A stretch of 64,000 nucleotides of DNA from Clostridiaceae bacterium (lineage in GTDB: Bacteria > Bacillota > Clostridia > Acetivibrionales > DUMB01). Position numbers and translations under genes: made by a program. A model generated the notes under the pieces. The model did not search any database. It was given only the letters and a program-made list of their open reading frames with translations, and was not told the origin of the DNA. Shown here in pieces: positions 28,627 to 40,944 of this stretch. Position 1 is the first letter of the stretch. Every line of letters begins with the position of its first letter. The stretch spans positions 2,846-66,845 of the forward strand of contig DULF01000049.1 in NCBI GenBank assembly GCA_012840535.1. Reading direction: 5' to 3'.

Positions 28627-30249
28627 TTATTTCAGGTTTTCAACCATTCTTGTGGCTATCAGTATTGCCTGTTCGCGAGTCGCATTGGCGTAGTGCATGG
28701 ATTCCTCAGCCGGAGTGGTATTCTTCGGGGCGAATTTATTGCCGCCGACACCTTTGATGATATTTTTTGCAACCATAAAATACACACTGTCCTTTGCCCA
28801 GCTTGAAATTAGATGATCATCGGCAAAAGCAGCGGGTTTATCATAGTCCAGCTTGAATTGGCTGTCGGTTTCAAGAGTCCAGCCTTCCATGGTAACCTTC
28901 TTGTATACCCGGGTAAGCATGGTTGCCGCTTGTTCTCGATTCAGAAGCATATTCGGAGAAAAAGTGGTAGGGCTTGTGCCGTTGGTCAAACCAAGGTTGA
29001 AAGCTTTCAAAACCTCGGGATCATTGCAATCAGTGAAAGGATTACTGGTAACAGGCTGTGCTTTTGTATTACTGAGGTTTTCATAAAGTTTAACACAAAC
29101 AGCTGCAAATTCGGCACGGGTAATGGGTTTGGTCATATCGGCGCCTATCAAGACATCGGGGATAAGACCCCAATCGGATGCTTTTTTAAGTTCCTCGATA
29201 GCCCATGACGATGCCTCACTCCATGCTTCGGTTGCCGCAAATTTGCTGAAATCGATATCCGGTGTGCCAGTGCCTTCTGAAAGATATATATATGGCTCCC
29301 ACTCGGTTTCCGTTGACAGCACGATTCCAAAATCATATTCTTCCTTATATCCTGGAGCGGAGGCGCGCACGGCATTCAAACCGGGAATTGCGTCAAAGGT
29401 GAATATTCCGCCATAACCTGTCGTGACGGTGGTACTAGTGCCCAGCAGGCGGACGGTGGCATTTTCAGCTCCGTAGACACGACCCGAAAAACGTCCTTTA
29501 AAAACATTTTCATTATAGTTGATTAAAAGCTTCACAAAGTCCACGGCATAGCCATCACCGACGCCATTTGTCTCATCTATCTTGATTACCAGCTTACCGG
29601 AAGCTATTTCATTATAAAAGCCTGATGGTATAATTGCCGATACGATATAACTGGTTGGGCCAGTCTGATCGACATGGTTAAGAAGTTCAGCGATAAATGG
29701 CGCGTCCCTGCCGTTAAGGGTGACTGTAAAATTACTTCCAAATGTTAATGCCTGAAAATCATCAATACATAACTGCAATAATGCACTTTTTACTTTTATG
29801 TCAGAAGTATCATAATTTAATGTGATGGTCAACGCGCCTTTTGCACAGGCGATATTCTCATCTTCATACCAATAGTCATCCTCAGCATTAAGCCAATTGT
29901 AATAATTCCTGGAATAGCCGTCAGAAATGGAACCGGTTTCATTGCTGCCTATATAAATACGGTCGGTGCCTTCGGGGTCAAGAGGATCCTCTATCCATGG
30001 GAAACTGTGACTGTATTGATCCACTGCGGTGAAAGGATTGTAGCCGTATCCATCAACAGCATTTTTAAAATTTAACGCATCAATGTCACCAACTCGAACC
30101 ATTAATTCGGCTTCGGATGTTCCCCTTAGTATTACGGTCTTACTGCTCCAATCTCCGTTATTTGGATCGGAGTATGCAAAGGATGGTAACGGCATAAGTA
30201 CTGAAATAAAGAACAAGACCAAAAATAAGGAAAGAATTTTTTTTCTCAT
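28627..30249 (-). CDS. Secreted S-layer-homology (3x SLH) cell-wall-anchored protein with unknown N-terminal domain and a CarboxypepD_reg-like module
   Basis: Signal peptide ending SFA/YS. Central GRVYGAENATVRLLG...FTFDAIPGLNAVRASAPGYKE. Three C-terminal SLH repeats (..WAIEELKKASDWGLI.., ..VLKAFNLGLTNGTSPTTFSPN.., ..WAKDSVYFMVAKNIIKGVGGNKFAPK..). Confidence 0.85.
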   Translation of the reverse strand: MRKKILSLFLVLFFISVLMPLPSFAYSDPNNGDWSSKTVILRGTSEAELMVRVGDIDALNFKNAVDGYGYNPFTAVDQYSHSFPWIEDPLDPEGTDRIYIGSNETGSISDGYSRNYYNWLNAEDDYWYEDENIACAKGALTITLNYDTSDIKVKSALLQLCIDDFQALTFGSNFTVTLNGRDAPFIAELLNHVDQTGPTSYIVSAIIPSGFYNEIASGKLVIKIDETNGVGDGYAVDFVKLLINYNENVFKGRFSGRVYGAENATVRLLGTSTTVTTGYGGIFTFDAIPGLNAVRASAPGYKEEYDFGIVLSTETEWEPYIYLSEGTGTPDIDFSKFAATEAWSEASSWAIEELKKASDWGLIPDVLIGADMTKPITRAEFAAVCVKLYENLSNTKAQPVTSNPFTDCNDPEVLKAFNLGLTNGTSPTTFSPNMLLNREQAATMLTRVYKKVTMEGWTLETDSQFKLDYDKPAAFADDHLISSWAKDSVYFMVAKNIIKGVGGNKFAPKNTTPAEESMHYANATREQAILIATRMVENLK

Positions 30250-30628: not shown

Positions 30629-31450
30629 TCACTGAGCTGCGTAACTTATTATATATTCTACGTTTTTGGGACAAGTGAGACCTGGTTTCATATCACGCCA
30701 GATCCCTGATATCCCAAGCTCACGCGCCGTTAACTCAAAATGGCACATTGCAATTCCAATGTCCACTTTTTGTATATCAAAATCCAGTATTTTTCCATAC
30801 AATTTGTTCCTGCATAAGAAAAAGTGAAAGTTGTTTCTGTCCTTAACAATTCGCCAGGGCTGTCTGTTTGATGCAGATGGCGCCACTCTGACCATTTCCA
30901 GGCACTCGCTGAAAATCCCGGCTTCTTCTTTTTTTAAAGGTTTGCTGAAGTCCTTGTCAAAGAATAGCTCAGTCCAATCCTTTCGATTTCTTGAGCCTGC
31001 GGCTGCTGCCATTATTGTGTCAACCAAGCTTCTTTTATCTTTGGAGTATCCAATGGGAGTAATTACCGGAACACACTCATCTTCACTTAAATTTAGCGCT
31101 TTTACGAATTCCGTTTTGTTAAAGGTTCCTCCAAGCCAGCAGGTTCCCAGACTTAGTGATGTTGCATATAGTATTATGTTTTCAAAAACGTATCCGAGGC
31201 TTTCCTCCATCCGGCTTTCTTTTCTTGTTACTGCACATATATAGGTTGTCGCTCCCCTGATTACTCTATAGGTTCCCAGCTTTATGTCCGGGCTTGTATT
31301 GTTCAAATCAACGATTTGGAATCTCATTTTCGTGTTGAATGGAGCCTTTACAGTATATGCATAATTAATAATCTTTTGTCTTAGATCCTGTGGAACAGCT
31401 TCATCTTTATACGTTCTTATGGACTTTCTTTTTAACATCGCATCCCGCAT
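30629..31450 (-). CDS. Nitroreductase-family protein
   Basis: MLKRKSIRTYKDEAV near the N-terminus and a second APSASNRQPWR motif (two-lobed nitroreductase-like). ATG 31450 is preferred over the track start 31483. Confidence 0.8.
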   Translation of the reverse strand: MRDAMLKRKSIRTYKDEAVPQDLRQKIINYAYTVKAPFNTKMRFQIVDLNNTSPDIKLGTYRVIRGATTYICAVTRKESRMEESLGYVFENIILYATSLSLGTCWLGGTFNKTEFVKALNLSEDECVPVITPIGYSKDKRSLVDTIMAAAAGSRNRKDWTELFFDKDFSKPLKKEEAGIFSECLEMVRVAPSASNRQPWRIVKDRNNFHFFLCRNKLYGKILDFDIQKVDIGIAMCHFELTARELGISGIWRDMKPGLTCPKNVEYIISYAAQ

Positions 31451-31635
31451 ATTCACTTCTCGTATGCACCTTCCCAAAAACATCTTTTTCCTTATTATAT
31501 ACTCTGATCAAAAATAAATAAACAAGATTATTTGCTTGATTATATAAACAAGTGGAAACAAAGTATTGCAGATAGATGCTTTTTAATATAAAATGGAAAT
31601 GAAAATAGCAGGATGTAACCGTGGAAAGGGGCAGA

Positions 31636-33330
31636 ATGCTAGTGAAAAAAAGATTAAGAGCTACTAAATCTATTGTTTATTGTATAATCTTCATTCTGTT
31701 ATTTTTACATCCGAGTTTTGCAAATGCCGGGAAAAACCTCAGATCTGCAATAATAAGCGATTTAACCGGGGAAGTAAGTGTTATGAAAGCGGGCGGGGAA
31801 AAAGCCATCAAAGCCTTTAAAAATATGAGTCTGACCCAGGGAGACACAATCATTACCAGAAAAAAATCAAAGGCCACGTTGCTTATTGATGATGACATTA
31901 CTTTATATGTAGCAGAAAATACACGTATTTTAATCAGCGAGCTGGTTGAATCTTCAAAATCAAAGTCCAAATCAACATTGATTGACCTTCAGGGCGGAGG
32001 TATCTGGACAAGTATAAAAAAAGCACTGAATATCAATTCAAAGTTTGAGATAAAAACGCCTACGGCTGTAATGGGCGCAAGAGGAACAGAATTCTACACA
32101 AGCCATATCGGAGAAAAAACCAATATCAGCGTATTGTCCGGTGCAGTTTCGATAACCTCATATAAAACGGTTCTTAATGAAGACGGTACTACCAAACAGA
32201 TAACCCTTAATGTTGTTCTGGAAAATAACCAGCATATGACCCTTGAAGCAAAGCCTGAAGAATTGTTTGACATGATACAGGAGGAATTGACACTTGAGAA
32301 ACTGGATTTGTTTGCACTTGAAATAATCAAGGAAATAGCCGGGAATGAGCCGGAACTCGTAAAACCGGAGTTTATTGAGAAAATTGATGAAATTATAGAA
32401 AGCAAGAAGCAGGAGGAAAGACAAAAAGAAGAGGAAGAAAAGAAAAAGGAAGAGGAGAAAAACAACAGGGCTAATGTAATAGAATATGATGAACAACTGC
32501 AGGAAGATGATTCCTACAATAATGATTATAATAACGGCACAGGAAGCGATGGCGGGGAACCCGGTATAAAACCCGCGGTGGAGCTGGTCCCTGAAACGAA
32601 CCGGAATTTTGTAGATTATGAGTTGAGAATAACATTTGCACCCGACGACGATTTTGCAAATTCCATTACCAGCGTAAAGGTTAAACACTCAAATTATTCG
32701 GATGAATTTATAGAGCTTGACGAGGGCGTGACTTGGAATGACGGAGATTATTATATTGACACTGAAATAATTGATGGGCGTTATGCAATTGTTTTAAATT
32801 TATATCGTTATAAAGGTGAACTAAACATTCCAGGGACCTTGACAGTAAGGGTAGAGGCAACCGGATACGAAGTATCAGAGGTTGAACAGGTTATTTATCC
32901 TTGGCCTGACAGTGAGGCATCCTCCATGGAAATACTTTTGAATGGCGAACCGGTTTATGAAGAAGAGCTGGATTATGGCAATACCTATACCATAGAGTTA
33001 ACTGCAATGGGTATTGAGTCAATTGACAGTGGAAATATCGTTCCCATTGAAAATATGCAGTTTAATTTGAATATTTTTATCTACGCAGACTCAGACGAAT
33101 ATGCTTTCCAAATAGACGGAGATTATTATGGTAACGGCGAATATGAATATATCCCCTTGAAATCAAAAACAGACGGAAATGGGAAAGTTACATTTGAAAT
33201 AACAATACCTGAAGACATGCCGGACCATGCAGAAGCATTTTATATAGAAATATGTTACGGCACAGAATCTGCATTTGAATTGTTTGGTTTTTACGAAATT
33301 TATTTCCGTTATGAGGATATACCCTGGTAA
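31636..33330 (+). CDS. Secreted FecR-domain protein with Glu/Lys-rich coiled segment and C-terminal Ig-like domains
   Basis: Signal peptide ending FANA. FecR-type block GEVSVMKAGGEKAIKAFKNMSLTQGDTIIT...TPTAVMGARGTEFYT. Charged tract KKQEERQKEEEEKKKEEEK. ATG 31636 follows GGAAAGGGG. Confidence 0.8.
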   Translation: MLVKKRLRATKSIVYCIIFILLFLHPSFANAGKNLRSAIISDLTGEVSVMKAGGEKAIKAFKNMSLTQGDTIITRKKSKATLLIDDDITLYVAENTRILISELVESSKSKSKSTLIDLQGGGIWTSIKKALNINSKFEIKTPTAVMGARGTEFYTSHIGEKTNISVLSGAVSITSYKTVLNEDGTTKQITLNVVLENNQHMTLEAKPEELFDMIQEELTLEKLDLFALEIIKEIAGNEPELVKPEFIEKIDEIIESKKQEERQKEEEEKKKEEEKNNRANVIEYDEQLQEDDSYNNDYNNGTGSDGGEPGIKPAVELVPETNRNFVDYELRITFAPDDDFANSITSVKVKHSNYSDEFIELDEGVTWNDGDYYIDTEIIDGRYAIVLNLYRYKGELNIPGTLTVRVEATGYEVSEVEQVIYPWPDSEASSMEILLNGEPVYEEELDYGNTYTIELTAMGIESIDSGNIVPIENMQFNLNIFIYADSDEYAFQIDGDYYGNGEYEYIPLKSKTDGNGKVTFEITIPEDMPDHAEAFYIEICYGTESAFELFGFYEIYFRYEDIPW

Positions 33331-33442
33331 GAGTGAATCTGCTGAAATTGTTTGTTAAATTACTGAATTATTAAATTGCTGAATAGAATTGTTAAATCAA
33401 ATTGTTGAGCCATAAAACTTCTTAATTGTTGAGGTATGACTA

Positions 33443-35199
33443 ATGAAAGTAAAATCAATACATTTAATTATAATTATATTTTTACTTGCAGTTATAATCT
33501 CATATTTCAACAGCTTTGAAAAACTTGAGTATTTGGCGCAGGACAGCCTGTTCCAAAGGGGCGGCGATTGGGACACCCGTATTGTTGTTATTGCCATAGA
33601 TGATGAAAGCCTTGAGAAACTGGGAAGGTGGCCCTGGAGCAGGAAAATTCATGCTGAGCTCATAGATACACTGGCAAAAGGCAATCCTGCGGTTATATTT
33701 CTTGACATGATATTATCTGAACCATCAGATGACCCGGGTGAAGACGGAAGCCTGGCTAAGGCTGTGAAAAACTTTGGGCGTGTAATTATACCGTCCTATG
33801 GTGTGTTGGACAAAACAGCAAAGGGCGGCTTAATTGCTGTGTCTCAAATTGTTGAACCCGTCCCGGTACTGAAAGAGAATGCTCTCCAGGCTCATATAAA
33901 CACGTTCCAGGATTCCGACGGTATAGTACGAAGGACATTGCCGCGTCTTGTTTACAACGGAGAGATTATTGAGTGTGCTGCACTTAAAGCATACAGGATA
34001 TACGCAGAAACAGTAGGTGAAGCTGACATTTCGGAAAACATTCCTGTTGATGAATGGAACATGATGTATATCCACTACACCGGTGAACCGCAGAGCGTGG
34101 AATTCCATTCTTACCACAGGGTTTTAGAAGGTGAAATTCCTCCTGAGTATTTTGAGGATAAAATAGTACTTGTCGGTCCTTACACTGTGGGAATCGGAGA
34201 TTATTACCTTACGTCAATAGACCGCCAGGTACCGATGTATGGAGTTGAAATACATGCGAATATCATTCAGAACCTTCTCCATGGCAGTTTTAAGAAAGAG
34301 GTTGGTTTTGCGTTTACTCTTGTAATACTGGTACTGTTTACAATATTGGGATCTTACGCGTTTAGACGTCTATCGCCGGTAATGTCTGCCTTGCTGTTAA
34401 TTGCAGGTATCGCCCTGTATGCCGGCGCTGCGGTTCTGGTTTATGGCACAGGCTATATACTGCCGGTGGTTTATCCTGTTTCCTTGTATTTTGTTATTTA
34501 TCTTATCACATTGGCATATCGATATATTAATGAACTTTTTGAAAGAAAGCGTATAACATCCTTATTCAGCAGGTATGTTGCACCGCAGGTTGTGGGCAAA
34601 ATTGTAGCCGGCGGAGAAGAAGCCCTGAAGCTTGGAGGATCCCGCAGGGAGCTGACTGTGCTTTTTGTTGACATAAGAGGATTTACTCCTTTGTCTGAAA
34701 GAGCTGAACCGGAAGAAGTGGTTGCCATTCTCAATGAATATCTTACACTATGTGCTGAATCAATTTTAAGTACAACGGTACATTGGACAAATTTATAGGG
34801 GATGCTACAATGGCACTGTTTAATGCGCCGCTGGATTTGGAAGACCATGCTTTTAGTGCCGTACAGGCGGCATGGGCCATGAAGCGGGGAGCGGAACCCC
34901 TTAAAAAGAAACTGGAAGAGAAGTTCGGAAAGACAGTGGAATTCGGAATAGGAATTAATACGGGTGAAGCTGTGGTCGGAAATATCGGAGCGGTTTTCAG
35001 AATGGATTATACTGCTATCGGAGATACTGTAAACACTGCCGCCCGGCTGGAGAGCAATGCCAGACCGGGACAGATTCTCATGAGCCAGTCTACTTATGAG
35101 CGGGTAAAGGACAGGGTTAGGGCCACGTTCATGGGTGAGTACACAGTGAAAGGCAAGGCCCATGGAATTCCGGTATACCAGTTGGACGGACTGAAATGA
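33443..35199 (+). pseudogene. CHASE2-sensor class III adenylate/guanylate cyclase, split by a 1-nt frameshift
   Basis: CHASE2 block VVIAIDDESLEKLGRWPWSRKIHAELIDTL..IFLDMILSEP, then TM helices, then cyclase LTVLFVDIRGFTPLSE (frame A). It continues as (Y)NGTLDKFIGDATMALFNAP...GINTGEAVVGNIG...DYTAIGDTVNTAARLES in frame B. The shift falls within 34759-34775, probably in the T-run at 34764-34767. Confidence 0.85.
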
Positions 35200-35243
35200 A
35201 TTCATTTTACCATATACAAATTAACATGTATAAAGGTGGTTAC

Positions 35244-36794
35244 ATGAATATATCTTCAGTAAAAGCAAAAAGATGCGTGTTAGTTTTGATTGTGATGACG
35301 TATGCGCTGTTTATCCTTGGTTTTTCCAATGGTGAAGAACCTGTGCGGGAGGGATCCTTAAAACCCGGCACTCCTGAAAACGTGGTTGTTGAAGTTTTTG
35401 CGGGTTCAGGTGAGTTTAAATTTGAAGAAGGTGAAGCGCTTAAGGCAGGTTTTCGCTATCCATACGGTTTAGCTATTGATAAGGACGGGGGTTTATTGGT
35501 GGCTGATTCATTTAACCATGCTGTCAGAAAGATCATTGACGGTACGGTAGAAACCATTGCAGGAGGTTATGACGAAGGAATGCTGGATCCTTACGGTTTT
35601 CCGGACGGGGGATATGTTGACGGCAAAAAAGCGGTTTCAAGGTTTAATAAGCCCAGGGGCATTGCCTTAAATTCAAAAGGAGTAATTTACATTACAGATA
35701 CCGAAAATCATTCTATAAGGAAAATCGTGGGCGATAAAGTGGTTACATGGGCAGGGAGCGGCAGCGCCGGATACAGAAACGGAAAAGGAAACACAGCTGA
35801 ATTTTGCTTTCCTACCGGCATTGCCATAGACAAATTCGATAACATTTATGTTGCGGATACCTTGAATAATTGTATCAGAAAAATTTCACCGAACGGAATT
35901 GTAACACTTTTTGCGGGAAAACCTGGAGATGAGGGCGGATATAAGGATGGCTGGCTTTTTGAAGCCATGTTCAATGAGCCCACAGGGCTTGCATTCGATA
36001 ATGAAGGGAATTTATACATTGCAGACAGCGGCAACCAGGTTATTCGGAAAATAAGCGGCAGCATGGTATCCACCTACGCAGGCGTGGTGAATGAGAATGA
36101 AAAAATTGCTGAAACAGGCTATTATAAAGGAGGTTACAGGGACGGAAACAGGGAAACGGCGCTGTTCAATTTCCCGAAAGGTCTTGCTGTGACCGGAAAT
36201 GGAACGGTTGTTGTTGCTGACACGTGGAATAACAGAATAAGGGCTGTAAAACCCGACGGAGAAGTTATAACCATTGCCGGTACAGGAGAGCCCGGAGAAG
36301 TGACAGGCCCGGCGGGCAAGGCCATGTTCAGCGGTCCCGTGGACGTTGTATACTGTTCAGGTTTCCTGTACATATCGGATATGTGGAACAATACAATAAA
36401 AAGAATGCCTTTTGATGAAGAAAACCCGATACAAATCAATATACCAGATATTGACGAAATCCAGTTTGAACCTTATTCAGAAAACATACAGGTATGGATA
36501 GACGGAATAAAGGTGGAATTTCCCGATGTTAAGCCTTTTACTGAAGACGGAGTGCAGTTTGTACCTGTAAGGTTTGTTTTTGAAACCTGGGGTGCCGAGG
36601 TGGACTGGGAGCAGGAGACAAAAACAGTTATTATTAAAAAGGAATACAAAGTAGCCTTGATTCATACAAATGAAGAGCCGGTTGTGTTTAAAAACGACAG
36701 GACCATGGTAAGTACCCAATATATGTCTGAAAAGTTCGGCTTTTCAGTGGAATGGATTCCTGAGTACAATGCAGTGGTGTTTGTTACGCAATAG
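35244..36794 (+). CDS. Secreted six-bladed NHL-repeat protein with C-terminal copper-amine-oxidase-N-like (stalk) domain
   Basis: Six repeats of the type P.G(L/I)A.D..G..Y(I/V)AD..N..IRKI. C-terminal VQFVPVRFVFETWGAEVDWEQETKTVIIKK. ATG 35244 follows AAAGGTGG. Confidence 0.85.
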   Translation: MNISSVKAKRCVLVLIVMTYALFILGFSNGEEPVREGSLKPGTPENVVVEVFAGSGEFKFEEGEALKAGFRYPYGLAIDKDGGLLVADSFNHAVRKIIDGTVETIAGGYDEGMLDPYGFPDGGYVDGKKAVSRFNKPRGIALNSKGVIYITDTENHSIRKIVGDKVVTWAGSGSAGYRNGKGNTAEFCFPTGIAIDKFDNIYVADTLNNCIRKISPNGIVTLFAGKPGDEGGYKDGWLFEAMFNEPTGLAFDNEGNLYIADSGNQVIRKISGSMVSTYAGVVNENEKIAETGYYKGGYRDGNRETALFNFPKGLAVTGNGTVVVADTWNNRIRAVKPDGEVITIAGTGEPGEVTGPAGKAMFSGPVDVVYCSGFLYISDMWNNTIKRMPFDEENPIQINIPDIDEIQFEPYSENIQVWIDGIKVEFPDVKPFTEDGVQFVPVRFVFETWGAEVDWEQETKTVIIKKEYKVALIHTNEEPVVFKNDRTMVSTQYMSEKFGFSVEWIPEYNAVVFVTQ

Positions 36795-36839
36795 GCTTTG
36801 GTACTCAATTATCATTTATTTCAGGAGACACTGATTACC

Positions 36840-37688
36840 ATGGAGAAACTGGAATTTAAAATAATATTCTGGGGTGTAAGGGGTTCAATGCCGGTTCCAG
36901 GGCCTTCCACCCTGAAATACGGGGGTAATACCCCTTGTGTCCAGGTGCAGATCGGGGAGAAGCTGATAATACTTGATGCCGGCACGGGCATATGCAATTT
37001 GGGAAAAGAGCTGATAAAGAAAAACACGAAAATAACGGGCCATATATTCATTACCCATGTTCACTGGGACCATATTCACGGCATTCCCTTCTTTCTGCCT
37101 GTATATAAAAAAGGGAATCATTTCAGAGTATTCGGTGAAAGGAAAGGGGATATGGGATTTAAGGAACTGATGTCTCTGATGATGAAAGCGCCTTATTTCC
37201 CTGTAGAAATGGATGCGATCGGCGACCAGATTGAAATATGTGATATAGAAGCAGGCCAAAGAATACAGTTAAGCCCTGGAATTGTTATTAAGACTGAAAG
37301 AAACAATCACCCCAACGGCGGTATTTCATACAGAATAGAACATGGCGGACGTTCTTTTTGCTACGTAACCGATACAGAGCATTATAAGGACACAATTGAT
37401 CCTCTCCTGAAAAATTTTATTGAGGGTGCGGATATCGTTATATATGATGCAAACTATACCGATGAGGAATATAACGGCCTTTGCGGAAATCCTTCACGCA
37501 CTGGATGGGGACATTCCACCTGGCAGGAAGGAATTAAGCTTGTAAGAGCTGCAGGAGCAAAGAAACTTGTGTTGTTTCACCATAATTCGGACAGAACGGA
37601 CAAAGAACTGGATATAATTGATGCACAGGCACGTGATGTATATCCTGATTGCGTAACTGCATATGAGGGTATGCAAATTATTCTGTAA
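36840..37688 (+). CDS. Metallo-beta-lactamase-fold hydrolase (Lactamase_B_2 type)
   Basis: N-terminal FWGVRGSMPVPG, metal motif THVHWDHIHG, and later HSTW and FHH motifs. Confidence 0.85.
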   Translation: MEKLEFKIIFWGVRGSMPVPGPSTLKYGGNTPCVQVQIGEKLIILDAGTGICNLGKELIKKNTKITGHIFITHVHWDHIHGIPFFLPVYKKGNHFRVFGERKGDMGFKELMSLMMKAPYFPVEMDAIGDQIEICDIEAGQRIQLSPGIVIKTERNNHPNGGISYRIEHGGRSFCYVTDTEHYKDTIDPLLKNFIEGADIVIYDANYTDEEYNGLCGNPSRTGWGHSTWQEGIKLVRAAGAKKLVLFHHNSDRTDKELDIIDAQARDVYPDCVTAYEGMQIIL

Positions 37689-37714
37689 ATACAAAAATAT
37701 TGGGGGGTACAAAT

Positions 37715-38329
37715 TTGACGAAATACTTTCCGGTATTAAAATATGTAAACATTCCAACCATTATTACATCTCTGTCAATATGTGCCGGTGTTGTATCTTT
37801 TATTCTGTTTACACATGGAATTTATAATTTTGGCATTCTGGCATATGGTTTTGCCCTGTTTTTTGACGGTATAGACGGCAAAATTGCAAGGAAATTAAAA
37901 AAAGAAACGGATTTTGGAGCGGAGTGCGACAGTTTGTCAGATGCCATAAATTTTACGGTTATTCCTGCCCTGATTGCATATTTTACAGGATTTAAAGGAC
38001 CAATCGCCGTATGCGTTCTTTTGATATATGTAATTTCAGGGATTTGGAGGCTTGCAAACTTTAATATCAGCGGGTTGATCCAGGTTGAAGGCAAAAGCTA
38101 TTTCACAGGCATTTGCACTACCCAGGCGGGCGCGCTGTTTCTGATAGCAATTACGGCATGCCTGGCATTTTTCAAAGATGCGTTGATATATTTTATGTAT
38201 CCTTTCTTTCTGGCATTGGCAATACTTATGAATTTATCATTTAAATGCAATAAAAACGGGCTGTTTACCAAGGCTTTGTATGTGCTGGTACCTGTATCGG
38301 TTTTTGTATCATTCATAAAAGTAGGGTAG
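37715..38329 (+). CDS. pssA: CDP-diacylglycerol-serine O-phosphatidyltransferase (CDP-alcohol phosphatidyltransferase family)
   Basis: Motif DGIDGKIARKLKKETDFGAECDSLSD (DGxxARx8GxxxDxxxD). Polytopic membrane protein upstream of psd. TTG 37715 after GGGGGT is preferred; the track start is TTG 37700. Confidence 0.8.
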   Translation: MTKYFPVLKYVNIPTIITSLSICAGVVSFILFTHGIYNFGILAYGFALFFDGIDGKIARKLKKETDFGAECDSLSDAINFTVIPALIAYFTGFKGPIAVCVLLIYVISGIWRLANFNISGLIQVEGKSYFTGICTTQAGALFLIAITACLAFFKDALIYFMYPFFLALAILMNLSFKCNKNGLFTKALYVLVPVSVFVSFIKVG

Positions 38330-38333
38330 AGGC

Positions 38334-39221
38334 ATGCTGAAAGTATACAACCTCAGAACAGGAAGTTACGAAATTGAAAAAACAGCGGGTAGCAGGTGGC
38401 TGGACGGTTTATATGGGACAGGCACGGGAAGGTTCCTGTTGGAATTATTAATTAAGCATAAGGTTTGTTCTTTTTTGTGCGGGAAATTATGTGACACCCG
38501 CATAAGCGCAAAAATGATCAAAAGGTTTGTTGAGAAATACAATATTGATTTGTCTGAATGTGTGGAGGGCATACACGGTTTTAAAAGCTTTAATGACTTT
38601 TTTACAAGAAAGCTTAAGCCCGGAGCAAGAAAATTTGACCCGGACCCGAACCTGCTGTCGTCACCCGGCGACGGGAGGATGCGGGTCCTGAAGGATATAG
38701 ACCCGGGGAATATATTACAGGTCAAAGGCCTTTTCTATTCCCTTGAAGAGTTGTTACTGGACAGAGAGCTTGCTGAAAAATACAAGGGAGGGATATGTAT
38801 AATTCTGCGCCTTGCTCCCGTGGACTACCACCGTTTTCATTTTGTTGATTCCGGTGTATGCGAAAGGAGCAGGGCTATCAAAGGTTTTTATTACTCGGTA
38901 AACCCCAGGGCCCTTCATGCCATACCGGGGCTTTACTGTAAAAACAACAGGGAAGTCAGTCTTTTCAGGTCAGATAACTTTGGCGATATTACGTATGTAG
39001 AAGTCGGGGCAAAATTTACAGGGACAATTGTTCAGACTTACAAACCTGGAACCAGGGTTGAAAAGGGAGCTGAAAAAGGCTATTTCAAGTTCGGGGGCTC
39101 CACCTGTATACTGCTTTTTGAGAAAAACTCGGCAGTTATCAATGAACAAATATTGGATCAAACCCAAAAAGGTTACGAGGTAAAGGTGCTGGCAGGAGAC
39201 GTAATCGGAAGAAAAGGATGA
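38334..39221 (+). CDS. psd: Phosphatidylserine decarboxylase proenzyme
   Basis: Typical length, with LRLAPVDYHRFH and the self-cleavage-type motif FKFGGSTCILLF near the C-terminus. Confidence 0.85.
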   Translation: MLKVYNLRTGSYEIEKTAGSRWLDGLYGTGTGRFLLELLIKHKVCSFLCGKLCDTRISAKMIKRFVEKYNIDLSECVEGIHGFKSFNDFFTRKLKPGARKFDPDPNLLSSPGDGRMRVLKDIDPGNILQVKGLFYSLEELLLDRELAEKYKGGICIILRLAPVDYHRFHFVDSGVCERSRAIKGFYYSVNPRALHAIPGLYCKNNREVSLFRSDNFGDITYVEVGAKFTGTIVQTYKPGTRVEKGAEKGYFKFGGSTCILLFEKNSAVINEQILDQTQKGYEVKVLAGDVIGRKG

Positions 39222-39245
39222 ATATATAATATTTCCCCTATTTCT

Positions 39246-39743
39246 TCAGCATTCTTTCATCTCCCACTTCGGGCAGTTATAATATTCTATCTGTTGTTTA
39301 TTTATTGGATATCTCCCGCATGAAAAATAGCGCCAGAAGAAAGAGTTATATGACCTGCACAGGTTGTTGGTTGTGTCCAGCAATGGACATGCTATGGCCT
39401 GGCAGCATTTTGTGCACTGGTTGCAGTCGAATGCACCTGCCTTCCAGGAGTCTCTTATCTTTACGATATTCAGGTCGGGAGAAGTTCTGGGAGGTGCGGT
39501 TAAGCTGATGGAAAACTCGCCCCTGTAGGCTTCTGAGGTTAACCATAAAAATGCCAGGCGCCAACATGCCATAACCATGGGAAAGTAGTAACGGAAGTAC
39601 TTCCAGAATTTCAGGTCATTAAAAAAGTAATATGAAAAAAGGGGAACAAGCAGGAGCCCGCCTATACCAAATGTCAGGATGGTAACGGCGGCGAAGATGA
39701 TGAATATTATGCGGTATACAGCGTATTTAACCTTATTTGGCAT
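39246..39743 (-). CDS. Membrane protein with YkgJ/UPF0153-like CxxCxxCC Cys-rich domain
   Basis: Two to three N-terminal hydrophobic helices, then FDCNQCTKCCQAIACPLLD...LCRSY...FSCGRYP...YNCPKWEMKEC. 55 bp downstream of the cNMP-CPBP gene on the same strand. Confidence 0.7.
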   Translation of the reverse strand: MPNKVKYAVYRIIFIIFAAVTILTFGIGGLLLVPLFSYYFFNDLKFWKYFRYYFPMVMACWRLAFLWLTSEAYRGEFSISLTAPPRTSPDLNIVKIRDSWKAGAFDCNQCTKCCQAIACPLLDTTNNLCRSYNSFFWRYFSCGRYPINKQQIEYYNCPKWEMKEC

Positions 39744-39798: not shown

Positions 39799-40944
39799 TT
39801 AGAATATAACCCACAAACCCAGCAAACCGGTAAAATTACCGATTAGAAAATGAGAAATGCTGATGCCGATTAAGTTTTTATGCCTATAATACATCCAGCC
39901 CCACAGCCACCCGGTAACAACTGCGGCTAAAGCCAGGTAGATTGAAGCAAAAACATGTAAAGAACCAAAAAGGAGCGATGTTATAATAATTGACAGTACC
40001 ACTTTTGAACGGCCGACCAAAAGCCGTTCCAGGGAACTCTGCACCACTCCCCGGGTTATAAACTCCTGGAGAGGTGCTACCACCAGGTATGTAACATATG
40101 TATAGTCAAAATATTCCCATACTATAATGCGCTTATCGGGAATTTTATCGGGATATGCAACGATAAGCGCGTATTTTGCCAAGGCCAGGATTCCCATAAT
40201 TGCCAGGGAAATAACCAGGGATTCCATAATTGATTTTTTTGCACCTGAAAGGGTTAAACCAAAGTCTTTCCAGCTTAAACTGCTGTTCCTGATAATTTTG
40301 ACAACAAGCGCAAGGGTAGTAACTTCAATGATTCTGGAAATGAAATAAGAACTTTGCTCCGGCAAATGACGGACTATCGCTTCGGTACTCAGCAATCCCA
40401 GGATGAAAGTGTAGCTTGTGATTAACAAAACAATGCTGGTAAATAATGAAGCCAGTTCCGTCCGTATTTTGTTCATTTTTTTCAGTTCTTCGTTTTTTTC
40501 TTCAAGTGAAAGATATGATACTTTCAAACGGTCATAAAGTTTTTGCAGTAATGTGCCAATGATATGGGGATGGGATTTGGTCACTTGTTCGAGATCATCT
40601 TTGAATATTTCATATACTGTCATGTCCGTTTTGGCTACGATGGATGCAGTACGTGTCTTTCCGGTCAGAAGGGCAACTTCACCGAAAAAATCCCCCGAAT
40701 TCAGCTGACCAATCAATACTCCGCCGCTGCTTTCGCTAATTACGTCGGCTTGCCCGTTTTCAATTATGAAAAGGCTGTCAGCCTTGTCACCTTCCCTGAT
40801 AATTCTTTCACCGGGCGTAAAATGCCTTGTTTTAATCCTGTCAAGGATTAAATATAATTCCTTTGGTATTTCACGCTCTTCGTTCAAACTGAAAAAGCTT
40901 CTTAAAGAATTACTTGACAGAAGGTTCTCATAAAACTCATTCAT
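39799..40944 (-). CDS. Cyclic-nucleotide-binding domain fused to a CPBP-family (CAAX/Abi-type) intramembrane metalloprotease
   Basis: cNMP-binding block RIIREGDKADSLFIIENGQADV...GDFFGEVALLTGKTRTASIVA. C-terminal polytopic region carries the CPBP motifs LQEFITRG, SLLFGSLH and SHFLIGN. Confidence 0.85.
   Translation of the reverse strand: MNEFYENLLSSNSLRSFFSLNEEREIPKELYLILDRIKTRHFTPGERIIREGDKADSLFIIENGQADVISESSGGVLIGQLNSGDFFGEVALLTGKTRTASIVAKTDMTVYEIFKDDLEQVTKSHPHIIGTLLQKLYDRLKVSYLSLEEKNEELKKMNKIRTELASLFTSIVLLITSYTFILGLLSTEAIVRHLPEQSSYFISRIIEVTTLALVVKIIRNSSLSWKDFGLTLSGAKKSIMESLVISLAIMGILALAKYALIVAYPDKIPDKRIIVWEYFDYTYVTYLVVAPLQEFITRGVVQSSLERLLVGRSKVVLSIIITSLLFGSLHVFASIYLALAAVVTGWLWGWMYYRHKNLIGISISHFLIGNFTGLLGLWVIF

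Follow-up and report, generated by a model that had tools for sequence, protein, structure and literature searches.

A degenerate CHASE2 cyclase locus in a Clostridiaceae bacterium points to a Firmicute gene cluster with FecR-domain and NHL-propeller partners and a possible role in envelope sensing

We analyzed a 64,000-nt stretch of DNA from a metagenome-assembled genome of a Clostridiaceae bacterium (GCA_012840535.1, contig DULF01000049.1; hereafter, the window), in which four closely packed genes occupy the (+) strand between 31.6 and 37.7 kb. They encode a secreted FecR-domain protein, a CHASE2 receptor cyclase that is split into two open reading frames (ORFs), an NHL-propeller protein with a stalk domain (NHL/stalk protein), and a protein with a metallo-beta-lactamase (MBL) fold (Table 1). 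A model-generated first-pass annotation, made from the letters alone, had described the first three as consecutive same-strand genes forming an extracytoplasmic sensing operon, and both the ORF list and Pfam searches place all three on the (+) strand as described. The intergenic gaps within the four-gene cluster are 112, 44, and 45 nt. A promoter and terminator scan of the cluster region gave matches at chance level, with no terminator match between the cluster genes; together with the short gaps, this only suggests a single transcript.

Analysis of the FecR-domain protein revealed a cleavable N-terminal signal peptide that ends in SFANA, with G as the next residue, a Pfam FecR match at residues 70–171 (E = 1.9e-15; 57.5 bits versus a cut-off of 24), and a Shr-like_HID match at residues 318–420 (E = 1e-6). 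The AlphaFold2 (AF2) model (mean predicted local distance difference test [pLDDT] score of 68.5) comprises a beta-rich region (38–204), a long helix that corresponds to a Glu/Lys tract (244–288), a disordered linker, and two beta-sandwich regions. This model was built on a shallow alignment of 10 sequences because the homologue search, whose word filter is weak on a low-complexity protein, returned only 11 proteins. Foldseek matched the model to tandem Ig-like domains and its N-terminal block to the periplasmic domain of a FecR-type anti-sigma factor, BDI_1681 (4m0n; TM-score of 0.40 normalized to the target). These results support the earlier description of a secreted FecR protein with a Glu/Lys tract and Ig-like C-terminal domains. 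The closest named relatives are the Leptospira surface adhesins/lipoproteins Lsa33 and LipL45. Like the FecR/PupR anti-sigma factors of FecA-FecR-FecI systems, the protein possesses a periplasmic FecR domain (PF04773) with a fold similar to 4m0n; unlike them, it has no cytoplasmic anti-sigma domain and no membrane span beyond the signal peptide, so that the likeness extends at most to their protein-binding periplasmic part. No sigma-70_r2/r4 or TonB-dependent receptor gene was found among the neighbours examined (27.7–41 kb). Judged by its signal peptide, the missing anti-sigma domain, and the lack of a nearby extracytoplasmic function sigma factor or TonB transducer, the window protein is not a FecR-type anti-sigma factor.

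The upstream cyclase ORF contains a CHASE2 domain (PF05226; E = 7.8e-57; 193.2 bits versus a cut-off of 26.3; residues 13–290) and the beginning of a Guanylate_cyc domain, the rest of which (profile positions 55–181; E = 2.3e-19) is encoded by the downstream ORF. In the AF2 model of the upstream ORF (pLDDT of 85), helices at 5–21, 289–309, 312–335, and 343–378 precede the cyclase domain, and the predicted arrangement is that of a CHASE2 receptor: an N-terminal transmembrane (TM) helix, an extracytoplasmic domain of ~260 aa, three further TM helices, and a cytoplasmic output domain. Foldseek and a PDB sequence search returned no solved structure with the CHASE2 fold (best Foldseek E = 0.53). 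The domain matches and the modelled topology agree with the first-pass assignment to a CHASE2-TM-class III nucleotidyl cyclase. All of the catalytic residues (two metal-binding Asp, Lys, Thr, Asn, and Arg) are present in the repaired translation, with the first metal Asp in FVDIRGFT of the upstream ORF, the Lys and the second metal Asp in DKFIGDA of the downstream ORF, and the Thr seven residues before the Asn of VNTAARLE. Because of its Lys/Thr pair, with residues mapped to CyaC/Rv1625c positions, we take the enzyme to be a class IIIb adenylyl cyclase, and its product would thus be cyclic AMP (cAMP).

A DNA alignment with an intact, 64%-identical homologue (locus L002, the intact form of the window arrangement) revealed a single missing base at ~34764, where ATC TTT has become AT- TTT, in keeping with the frameshift noticed in the first pass. 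Inserting one base in silico restores a protein of 585 aa, which is the length of the two closest intact homologues (P0002 and P0003; the best intact homologues range from 585 to 612 aa). The break in the catalytic domain falls between profile positions 40 and 55, so the domain is not one uninterrupted polypeptide. The identical 1-nt deletion occurs in L001, a separately recovered metagenome contig from the Joint Genome Institute (JGI) that represents a 97.4% identical strain. Over 6.7 kb, this contig and the window differ at 158 positions; further upstream, identity falls to 92%, and the flanking genes are not the same. Sequencing error was rejected as the cause, since L001 shares the deletion and yet differs at these 158 positions and in gene content; an assembly artefact is excluded on the same grounds. 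The frameshift had been treated as a slip to be repaired before the cyclase is assayed; it is instead a real inherited allele of a cluster undergoing erosion, and the window cyclase should be annotated as a pseudogene.

The NHL/stalk protein scored 148 bits against Pfam NHL (PF01436; E = 1.4e-44; five repeats scored), and an alignment of 18 sequences (A4) shows a conserved sixth repeat of more divergent sequence (FSGPVDVVY…DMWNNTIKRM). Six F-x-x-P-x-G...D-x-x-N-x-x-I-R repeats are thus readable in that alignment, a blade count that comes from aligned sequences and not from a structural model. Residues 435–527 match Cu_amine_oxidN1 (PF07833; E = 1.5e-19; 70.3 bits versus a cut-off of 24.2), the stalk domain. 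Searches against PDB sequences aligned the protein with NHL propellers over 343 residues, the strongest matches being non-enzymatic teneurin-like proteins, TRIM71, and the sensor domain of PknD (1rwi; E = 1.7e-14). With an N-terminal signal or anchor, the secreted six-blade propeller with a stalk-type domain that had been proposed stands. Its proposed association with the cell wall is unsupported, with no evidence for or against it; an SLH-domain protein is encoded nearby (28627-30249), but the domain search of the NHL/stalk protein found no SLH, LysM, or other known wall-binding domain. The gene had been started at 35196, with an ATGA overlap of the cyclase stop codon; a Shine-Dalgarno sequence, AAAGGTGG, lies upstream of 35244 and makes the latter the most likely start as read from the sequence, so there is a 44-nt gap and no overlap.

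The product of the fourth gene has a complete metal site of the form HxHxDH…H…D…H…H, in which H73, H75, D77, H78, H157, D178, H225, and H247 are invariant in 10 orthologues. In a PDB profile search, it matched RNase Z (1e-17), BA1088 (5e-13), and Apyc1 (8e-5), and it is closest to the RNase Z/ElaC-type zinc phosphodiesterases, without their extra arm. The gene context and the published Campylobacterota cluster with a cAMP phosphodiesterase (discussed below) make it, by analogy, a candidate cyclic-nucleotide phosphodiesterase. A second gene with a plausible link to cyclic nucleotides lies on the opposite strand beyond the cluster and encodes a cyclic nucleotide monophosphate (cNMP)-binding domain (Pfam cNMP_binding; 1.5e-23) fused to a CPBP/Rce1-like intramembrane protease (2.8e-14). 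This fusion is tentatively a cAMP effector on the strength of its domains and, if so, would be an unusual candidate for a cAMP-gated protease. In the related locus L085, it and a Cys-rich ORF (orf165) are syntenic with the MBL, pssA, and psd genes.

To place the window among its relatives, one genome per GTDB species was scanned, which yielded at least 596 confirmed cyclase loci, the best 80 of which were retained. Nearly all carry a Bacillota label. Together with seven further loci that were retrieved through protein identity and with the window itself, these 80 gave 88 loci, in all of which ORFs were called and classified with phmmer or with hidden Markov models built from the window proteins and their hits. 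We found that a FecR-domain gene was linked to the CHASE2 cyclase in 77 of the 88 loci, which bears out the earlier remark that the two form a recurring pairing. Less frequent neighbours were a GAF-HD-GYP gene (54/88), an AP_endonuc_2 TIM-barrel gene (39/88), a gene for a secreted Ig-like (Big_13) protein (30/88), the NHL/stalk gene (29/88), genes for cNMP-binding proteins of several architectures (13/88), and the MBL gene (12/88). A preceding tally of 85 loci placed the FecR gene ≤6 kb from the cyclase and on its strand in 71, and 7 of the 10 loci without FecR had at least one flank shorter than 4 kb. Many of the cyclase-FecR junctions overlap by 4 nt. Among the FecR partners, the N-terminal FecR region is the conserved part, and the C-terminal regions are highly variable Ig-like, adhesin-like arrays (300–2700 aa).

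With few exceptions, the cyclase, FecR, and NHL genes adjoin one another and share an orientation, although their order varies: at least seven arrangements were seen across Clostridia and Bacilli. Specifically, with F, C, N, and M denoting the FecR, cyclase, NHL, and MBL genes and G the GAF-HD-GYP gene, the NHL-containing orders were FCNM, FNC, NFC, CFN(G)(D), NMCF, NCF, CNF, and CMNF. Loci with the NHL gene fall on deep branches of the cyclase tree, in Paenibacillus, Brevibacillus, Clostridium, Desulfosporosinus, and Petroclostridium as well as in metagenome-assembled genomes (MAGs) of Tissierellaceae, Syntrophomonadaceae, and Anaerovoracaceae. The association also holds from the NHL side: nine proteins that combine NHL with PF07833 were found on contigs of ≥10 kb, and 5 of the 6 inspected have a CHASE2 cyclase, intact or as a remnant, next to them, while P0194 has only FecR genes within the 9 kb retrieved. 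The contigs of P0194 and of the other three of the nine equal in length a contig with a CHASE2 hit. Conservation of the triad in relatives had been set beforehand as a refutation test of the sensing unit; because the triad is conserved, through rearrangements and reciprocally, that test does not refute it. Pairwise distances between CHASE2 ectodomains follow those between NHL propellers (r = 0.79) and between FecR regions (r = 0.66) about as closely as those between the catalytic domains of the cyclases themselves (r = 0.78), a correlation over non-independent pairs that shows co-inheritance, not physical contact. The MBL gene accompanies the cyclase even in loci without FecR and NHL (orders MGC and CMG in L009, L023, and L024), which points to a cytoplasmic partnership. 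The linkage data show a CHASE2 receptor cyclase to which evolution has tied a phosphodiesterase-type enzyme and two proteins of extracytoplasmic location. The three-gene unit of the first-pass annotation thus stands as a conserved triad and falls short in its confinement to three genes, as the MBL gene also belongs to it, GAF-HD-GYP genes occur in most relatives, and cNMP-binding effectors lie nearby.

No locus among the 88 has both the NHL and the Ig-like partner. The Ig-like type, with gene orders CTGIF or IFCTG (T, TIM-barrel gene; I, Ig-like gene), defines a Lachnospiraceae/Oscillospiraceae clade. From this distribution, the NHL protein is one of two mutually exclusive accessory types, and the Ig-like protein apparently takes its place in Lachnospiraceae and Oscillospiraceae. 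Loci L025–L083 have the form cyclase, AP_endonuc_2 (a xylose-isomerase-like TIM barrel), GAF-HD-GYP, secreted Ig-like (Big_13) protein, and FecR, and in some of them a gene for a cNMP-binding-SpoIIE (PP2C) phosphatase immediately precedes that of the cyclase. The GAF-HD-GYP genes come in two subtypes, one with a GYC variant of the GYP motif (e.g., L087:9507-10667, L025:12595-14055, and L009:1840-3327), and none is present in the 64-kb window. Their linkage hints at an HD-GYP enzyme acting on cAMP or at cross-talk from cAMP to cyclic di-GMP. Firmicute-type CHASE2 cyclase loci also occurred in MAGs assigned to other phyla, namely L015 (recorded as 'Candidatus Udaeobacter sp.'), which also has a FecR gene and is close to Paenibacillus versions, and L034 (Synergistaceae); their placement reflects either mis-binning or horizontal transfer.

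Erosion of the cluster in the window's lineage extends beyond the cyclase. L001 carries another frameshift in its FecR gene, where an A-run that is A7 in the window is shortened to A6, and a 1.1-kb deletion between short direct repeats (…CTTCGG…) has cost that strain orf165 along with the CPBP half of its cNMP-CPBP fusion. The window FecR protein, in turn, is missing 432 nt in frame, equivalent to two Flg_new repeats that L001 carries; the orthologues P0249 and P0250 also bear a Flg_new domain. In L085, whose NHL protein is 64% identical to that of the window, the C-terminal part of FecR is fused directly to the last TM helix and the cyclase domain, with the FecR domain and CHASE2 gone; the NHL, MBL, pssA, psd, orf165, and cNMP-CPBP genes are still syntenic there. 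The MBL orthologue of L085 (5764-6540, [−] strand) has an aberrant N-terminus and a C-terminus that is truncated in the alignment, and it is possibly a pseudogene or the product of Logan assembly errors. The further lesions in FecR, cNMP-CPBP (L001), and CHASE2 (L085) point to relaxed selection on the pathway. Comparison of window positions 32555-39272 with L001 5741-12469 showed 250-nt blocks with no differences alternating with blocks of 4–10% divergence (e.g., 35000-35750, the N-terminal half of the NHL gene), a mosaic that suggests frequent recombination between co-existing populations.

Several known systems resemble parts of the cluster. In Campylobacterota, a four-gene cluster of a CHASE2 adenylate cyclase, a cAMP phosphodiesterase, a FecR-domain protein, and a TPR protein has been described from gene clustering, with no mechanism (PMC9239204). 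Like that cluster, the window combines a CHASE2-class III cyclase, an adjoining FecR gene, a repeat-built protein, and a phosphodiesterase-type gene. Unlike it, the window has an NHL/stalk protein as its repeat protein and no TPR, an RNase Z-like MBL protein as its candidate phosphodiesterase, a frameshifted cyclase, and a Gram-positive host. Across the related loci, the counterparts of the linked Campylobacterota-type cAMP phosphodiesterase would be the MBL gene in 12 of the 88 and the GAF-HD-GYP gene in 54, both putative in substrate. Sinorhizobium meliloti possesses a clr-cyaD1-smc02177-smc02178 locus together with CyaD2, CyaK, NsrA, and SMb20495 (PMC5498481, PMC13001267). Its CyaD1 becomes constitutively active without CHASE2, i.e., CHASE2 is an inhibitory input domain (PMC5498481). 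The shared features are a CHASE2 adenylate cyclase with a FecR gene alongside, the S. meliloti effector being of the CRP type; unlike the window, this Gram-negative alphaproteobacterium has neither an NHL partner nor an MBL gene, and its FecR protein is dispensable for perception. The Burkholderia 'BiofilmReg' operon encodes a response regulator, a LysM/FecR protein, and a CHASE2 histidine kinase (PMC5192318) and likewise keeps a secreted FecR protein gene beside a CHASE2 receptor in a conserved operon. In contrast to the window, its output is a histidine kinase with a response regulator, its FecR protein bears LysM, and it has no NHL or MBL gene.

For the remaining parts, the closest known case of a bacterial NHL propeller that senses outside the cell is PknD of Mycobacterium tuberculosis, in which an exposed six-blade propeller likewise forms part of a signalling system. 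In PknD, the propeller is fused to a kinase via a TM segment, whereas the window propeller is a separate protein with a stalk, and the signalling protein has a CHASE2 sensor of its own. The MBL protein resembles Apyc1-type MBL phosphodiesterases (7u2s; NF041851) in its fold, full HxHxDH site, size, and the location of its gene beside a nucleotide cyclase; unlike them, it falls far below the family cut-offs and is closer to RNase Z/ElaC. The linkage of FecR with CHASE2 is already published for Burkholderia, Campylobacterota, and, implicitly, S. meliloti. In the literature searched, we found no CHASE2 protein with an NHL or stalk-domain partner and no treatment of Firmicute CHASE2 cyclases. The new elements are the NHL/stalk partner, the way in which it alternates with an Ig-like one, and, in Gram-positive bacteria, the linkage of the MBL gene.

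We propose, with a probability of roughly 60%, that the window holds a decayed version of an envelope-sensing cAMP cluster that is widespread in Firmicutes and in which FecR and NHL proteins act with CHASE2 and the MBL protein resets the signal. The core parts would be a receptor adenylyl cyclase (a TM helix, CHASE2, three TM helices, and a class IIIb domain) and a secreted FecR protein with variable Ig-like C-terminal domains, to which a large branch of the family would add the NHL/stalk propeller as a third fixed partner. The FecR-domain and NHL proteins may act from outside on or with the CHASE2 ectodomain, either by presenting a cue or by relieving inhibition. CHASE2 would keep the cyclase off until relieved, upon which cAMP would rise and could be read by cNMP-binding proteins, i.e., the adjacent cNMP-CPBP protease or the cNMP-SpoIIE phosphatases of relatives, and MBL and/or GAF-HD-GYP enzymes would then reset the signal. 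Of this, the domains, the frameshift with its inheritance, and the conserved linkage are observed; we infer the physical contacts, the direction of signalling, cAMP as the product, the substrate of the MBL protein, and the loss of function. That the secreted partners serve as inputs to CHASE2 is somewhat less probable than not. A more specific proposal is a tripartite extracytoplasmic receptor on the Gram-positive surface, in which the propeller captures an envelope-derived or environmental ligand and FecR relays it to CHASE2 to switch on cAMP synthesis, the Ig-like protein of Lachnospiraceae being an interchangeable capture subunit. We regard this version as rather unlikely; if true, it would be the first ligand-input mechanism for the CHASE2 family. 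Accordingly graded, the conserved extracytoplasmic sensing unit around a CHASE2 cyclase that the first-pass annotation had envisaged holds as a linked unit and is extended by further genes, and its physical three-part sensory complex stays a hypothesis that is purely conjectural.

Several observations weigh against the proposed cluster function and bear on its rivals. The FecR gene smc02177 beside cyaD1 is itself a target of cAMP-Clr, activated via CyaD1/D2/K and Clr, and its product is needed for the downstream phenotype and not for perception of the plant signal (PMC5498481). Being induced by cAMP-Clr and dispensable for perception, it fits an output better than a co-receptor, and the FecR and NHL proteins could likewise be surface or effector proteins under the cAMP control of the cyclase, or members of a feedback loop. 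The adhesin-like nature of the FecR partners also speaks for this, both in the nearest named relatives of the window protein (Lsa33 and LipL45) and in the variable Ig-like C-termini across loci, as does the NHL gene of L085, which is intact where the sensor is lost. More broadly, the NHL and MBL genes are intact in all three eroded relatives and may thus have cyclase-independent functions. However, operon linkage with 4-nt overlaps, kept through many rearrangements, is typical of subunits or partners (co-regulated outputs are still compatible with it), the conserved portion of the FecR partner is its N-terminal FecR region and not the variable adhesin-like part, and the S. meliloti authors left open whether FecR senses other signals. 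We consider an output role, the main rival, improbable, a shade more so than the tripartite receptor. The NHL protein might instead be an enzyme, such as a lactonase, lyase, or redox-type propeller, that makes, modifies, or destroys the CHASE2 ligand. Weak Pfam matches to SGL/gluconolactonase, arylesterase, Vgb lyase, and PhoX propellers, along with the name 'sugar lactone lactonase YvrE' given to some homologues by JGI, are in line with this; however, these matches lie near or below threshold and overlap the generic propeller signal, the strongest matches are non-enzymatic interaction or sensor propellers, and no catalytic motif was identified in the protein, which leaves the enzymatic role quite improbable. 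The resetting role of the MBL protein is weakened by its scores below the curated cut-offs for Apyc1 (PF23023; 15 versus 50 bits) and for the cNMP phosphodiesterases (NF041851; 45.6 versus 400 bits).

The remaining difficulty concerns the degenerate state of the window copy. Between the cyclase ORFs of the window and L001, synonymous changes exceed non-synonymous ones (9:8), giving a non-synonymous to synonymous rate ratio (dN/dS) of about 0.2–0.3 (binomial P of about 0.006), which is unlikely under strict neutrality and leaves the loss of function unproven in these two strains with a shared deletion; the test rests on 17 substitutions and is unreliable because the strains diverge in a mosaic, recombination-like pattern in which 490 nt around the deletion are identical. 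A cluster that still functions here would require −1 ribosomal or transcriptional slippage at the T-run or reassembly of the fragments, and it could draw on the intact catalytic residues of both fragments and on an in-frame TTG of the downstream ORF, 13 nt before the stop codon of the upstream ORF, that could permit re-initiation. Programmed frameshifting or slippage is unlikely from the site itself, as UCA AUU UUA AGU lacks the X XXY YYZ form of a canonical slippery heptamer and a T4 run is far too short for efficient transcriptional slippage. No Shine-Dalgarno sequence precedes the TTG, the split falls inside the catalytic fold, and the lesions in FecR, cNMP-CPBP, and CHASE2 arose independently. 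Continued function is thus unlikely, only marginally less so than the enzymatic role of the NHL protein, and the window cluster is probably inactive in this genome. Chance adjacency or local synteny of the three genes without a shared function has nothing positive in its favour, beyond promoter-like matches that are at chance level; set against FecR linkage in 77 of the 88 loci and NHL linkage in 29, in at least seven orders, in two classes of Bacillota, and reciprocally from the NHL side, it is highly improbable.

CHASE2 is one of the commonest extracytoplasmic sensor domains in bacteria. The literature searched contained one partly characterized CHASE2 signal, that of Sinorhizobium. The cluster provides a portable Gram-positive parts list (cyclase, FecR protein, NHL/stalk or Ig-like accessory, phosphodiesterase-type genes, and cNMP-binding effectors), with no outer membrane to complicate matters, and a candidate cAMP signalling route in Clostridia and gut Lachnospiraceae. 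Intact versions are present in the genomes of isolates, including several Paenibacillus species, Brevibacillus fluminis, Clostridium aestuarii, C. ganghwense, and Petroclostridium sp. X23, and the role of FecR partners for CHASE2 receptors is therefore directly testable by genetics and biochemistry. As the window copy is decaying, the value of the finding lies in the family and not in this locus.

Table 1. Features of the CHASE2 cyclase locus and its flanks (window coordinates)
Feature	Position	Strand	Basis or remark
Divergent nitroreductase, TM1586_NiRdase	30629-31483	−	Profile match
Upstream intergenic region, likely cluster promoter and leader	31484-31635	+	Shared with divergent nitroreductase gene
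Secreted FecR-domain protein, 564 aa	31636-33330	+	Pfam, AF2 model, Foldseek
FecR-cyclase intergenic region with AT-rich direct repeats	33340-33433	+	Repeat search
Cyclase upstream ORF: TM1, CHASE2 ectodomain, three TM helices, linker, first ~45 residues of class III domain	33443-34798	+	
Single-base deletion site in T-run; intact homologue reads ATCTTT; frame shift −1	34762-34767	+	DNA alignment
Cyclase downstream ORF: remainder of catalytic domain	34783-35199	+	Pfam Guanylate_cyc
Six-blade NHL propeller with C-terminal Cu_amine_oxidN1 stalk, 516 aa, N-terminal hydrophobic signal/anchor	35244-36794	+	
MBL-fold zinc phosphodiesterase (putative), RNase Z/ElaC-like branch, 282 aa	36840-37688	+	
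pssA-like CDP-alcohol phosphatidyltransferase and phosphatidylserine decarboxylase (psd)	37700-39221	+	NCBIfam; synteny in L001, L002, L085, L088
Cys-rich 165-aa ORF (orf165)	39246-39743	−	
cNMP-binding domain fused to CPBP/Rce1-like intramembrane protease	39799-40944	− (convergent)	Pfam

Upstream of the cluster, a promoter-like match was found at 31471-31498, and such matches occur at chance level region-wide; an Rfam scan of 28–42 kb, aimed at leaders and riboswitches, matched no family. The gap of 112 nt that separates the FecR gene from the cyclase contains four to six direct copies of an AT-rich motif of ~10–13 nt, (A/T)AATTG(T/C)TGA, and L001 has a 13-nt insertion in this gap. The repeats may be a regulator-binding array or a mere low-complexity spacer.

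The pssA-like and psd genes, possibly co-transcribed with the cluster, adjoin it in five related loci and in three relative arrangements, with large acyltransferase or FabA-type genes added in L002 and L088. This adjacency reflects either lineage synteny or a link of envelope-lipid synthesis to the sensor; the synteny is probably lineage-specific and the pair outside the sensing module. Two genes upstream of the cluster, on the (−) strand (28627-30249), lies a gene for a secreted protein of 540 aa with C-terminal SLH domains and a CarboxypepD_reg-like domain, which is consistent with an S-layer-bearing Gram-positive envelope.

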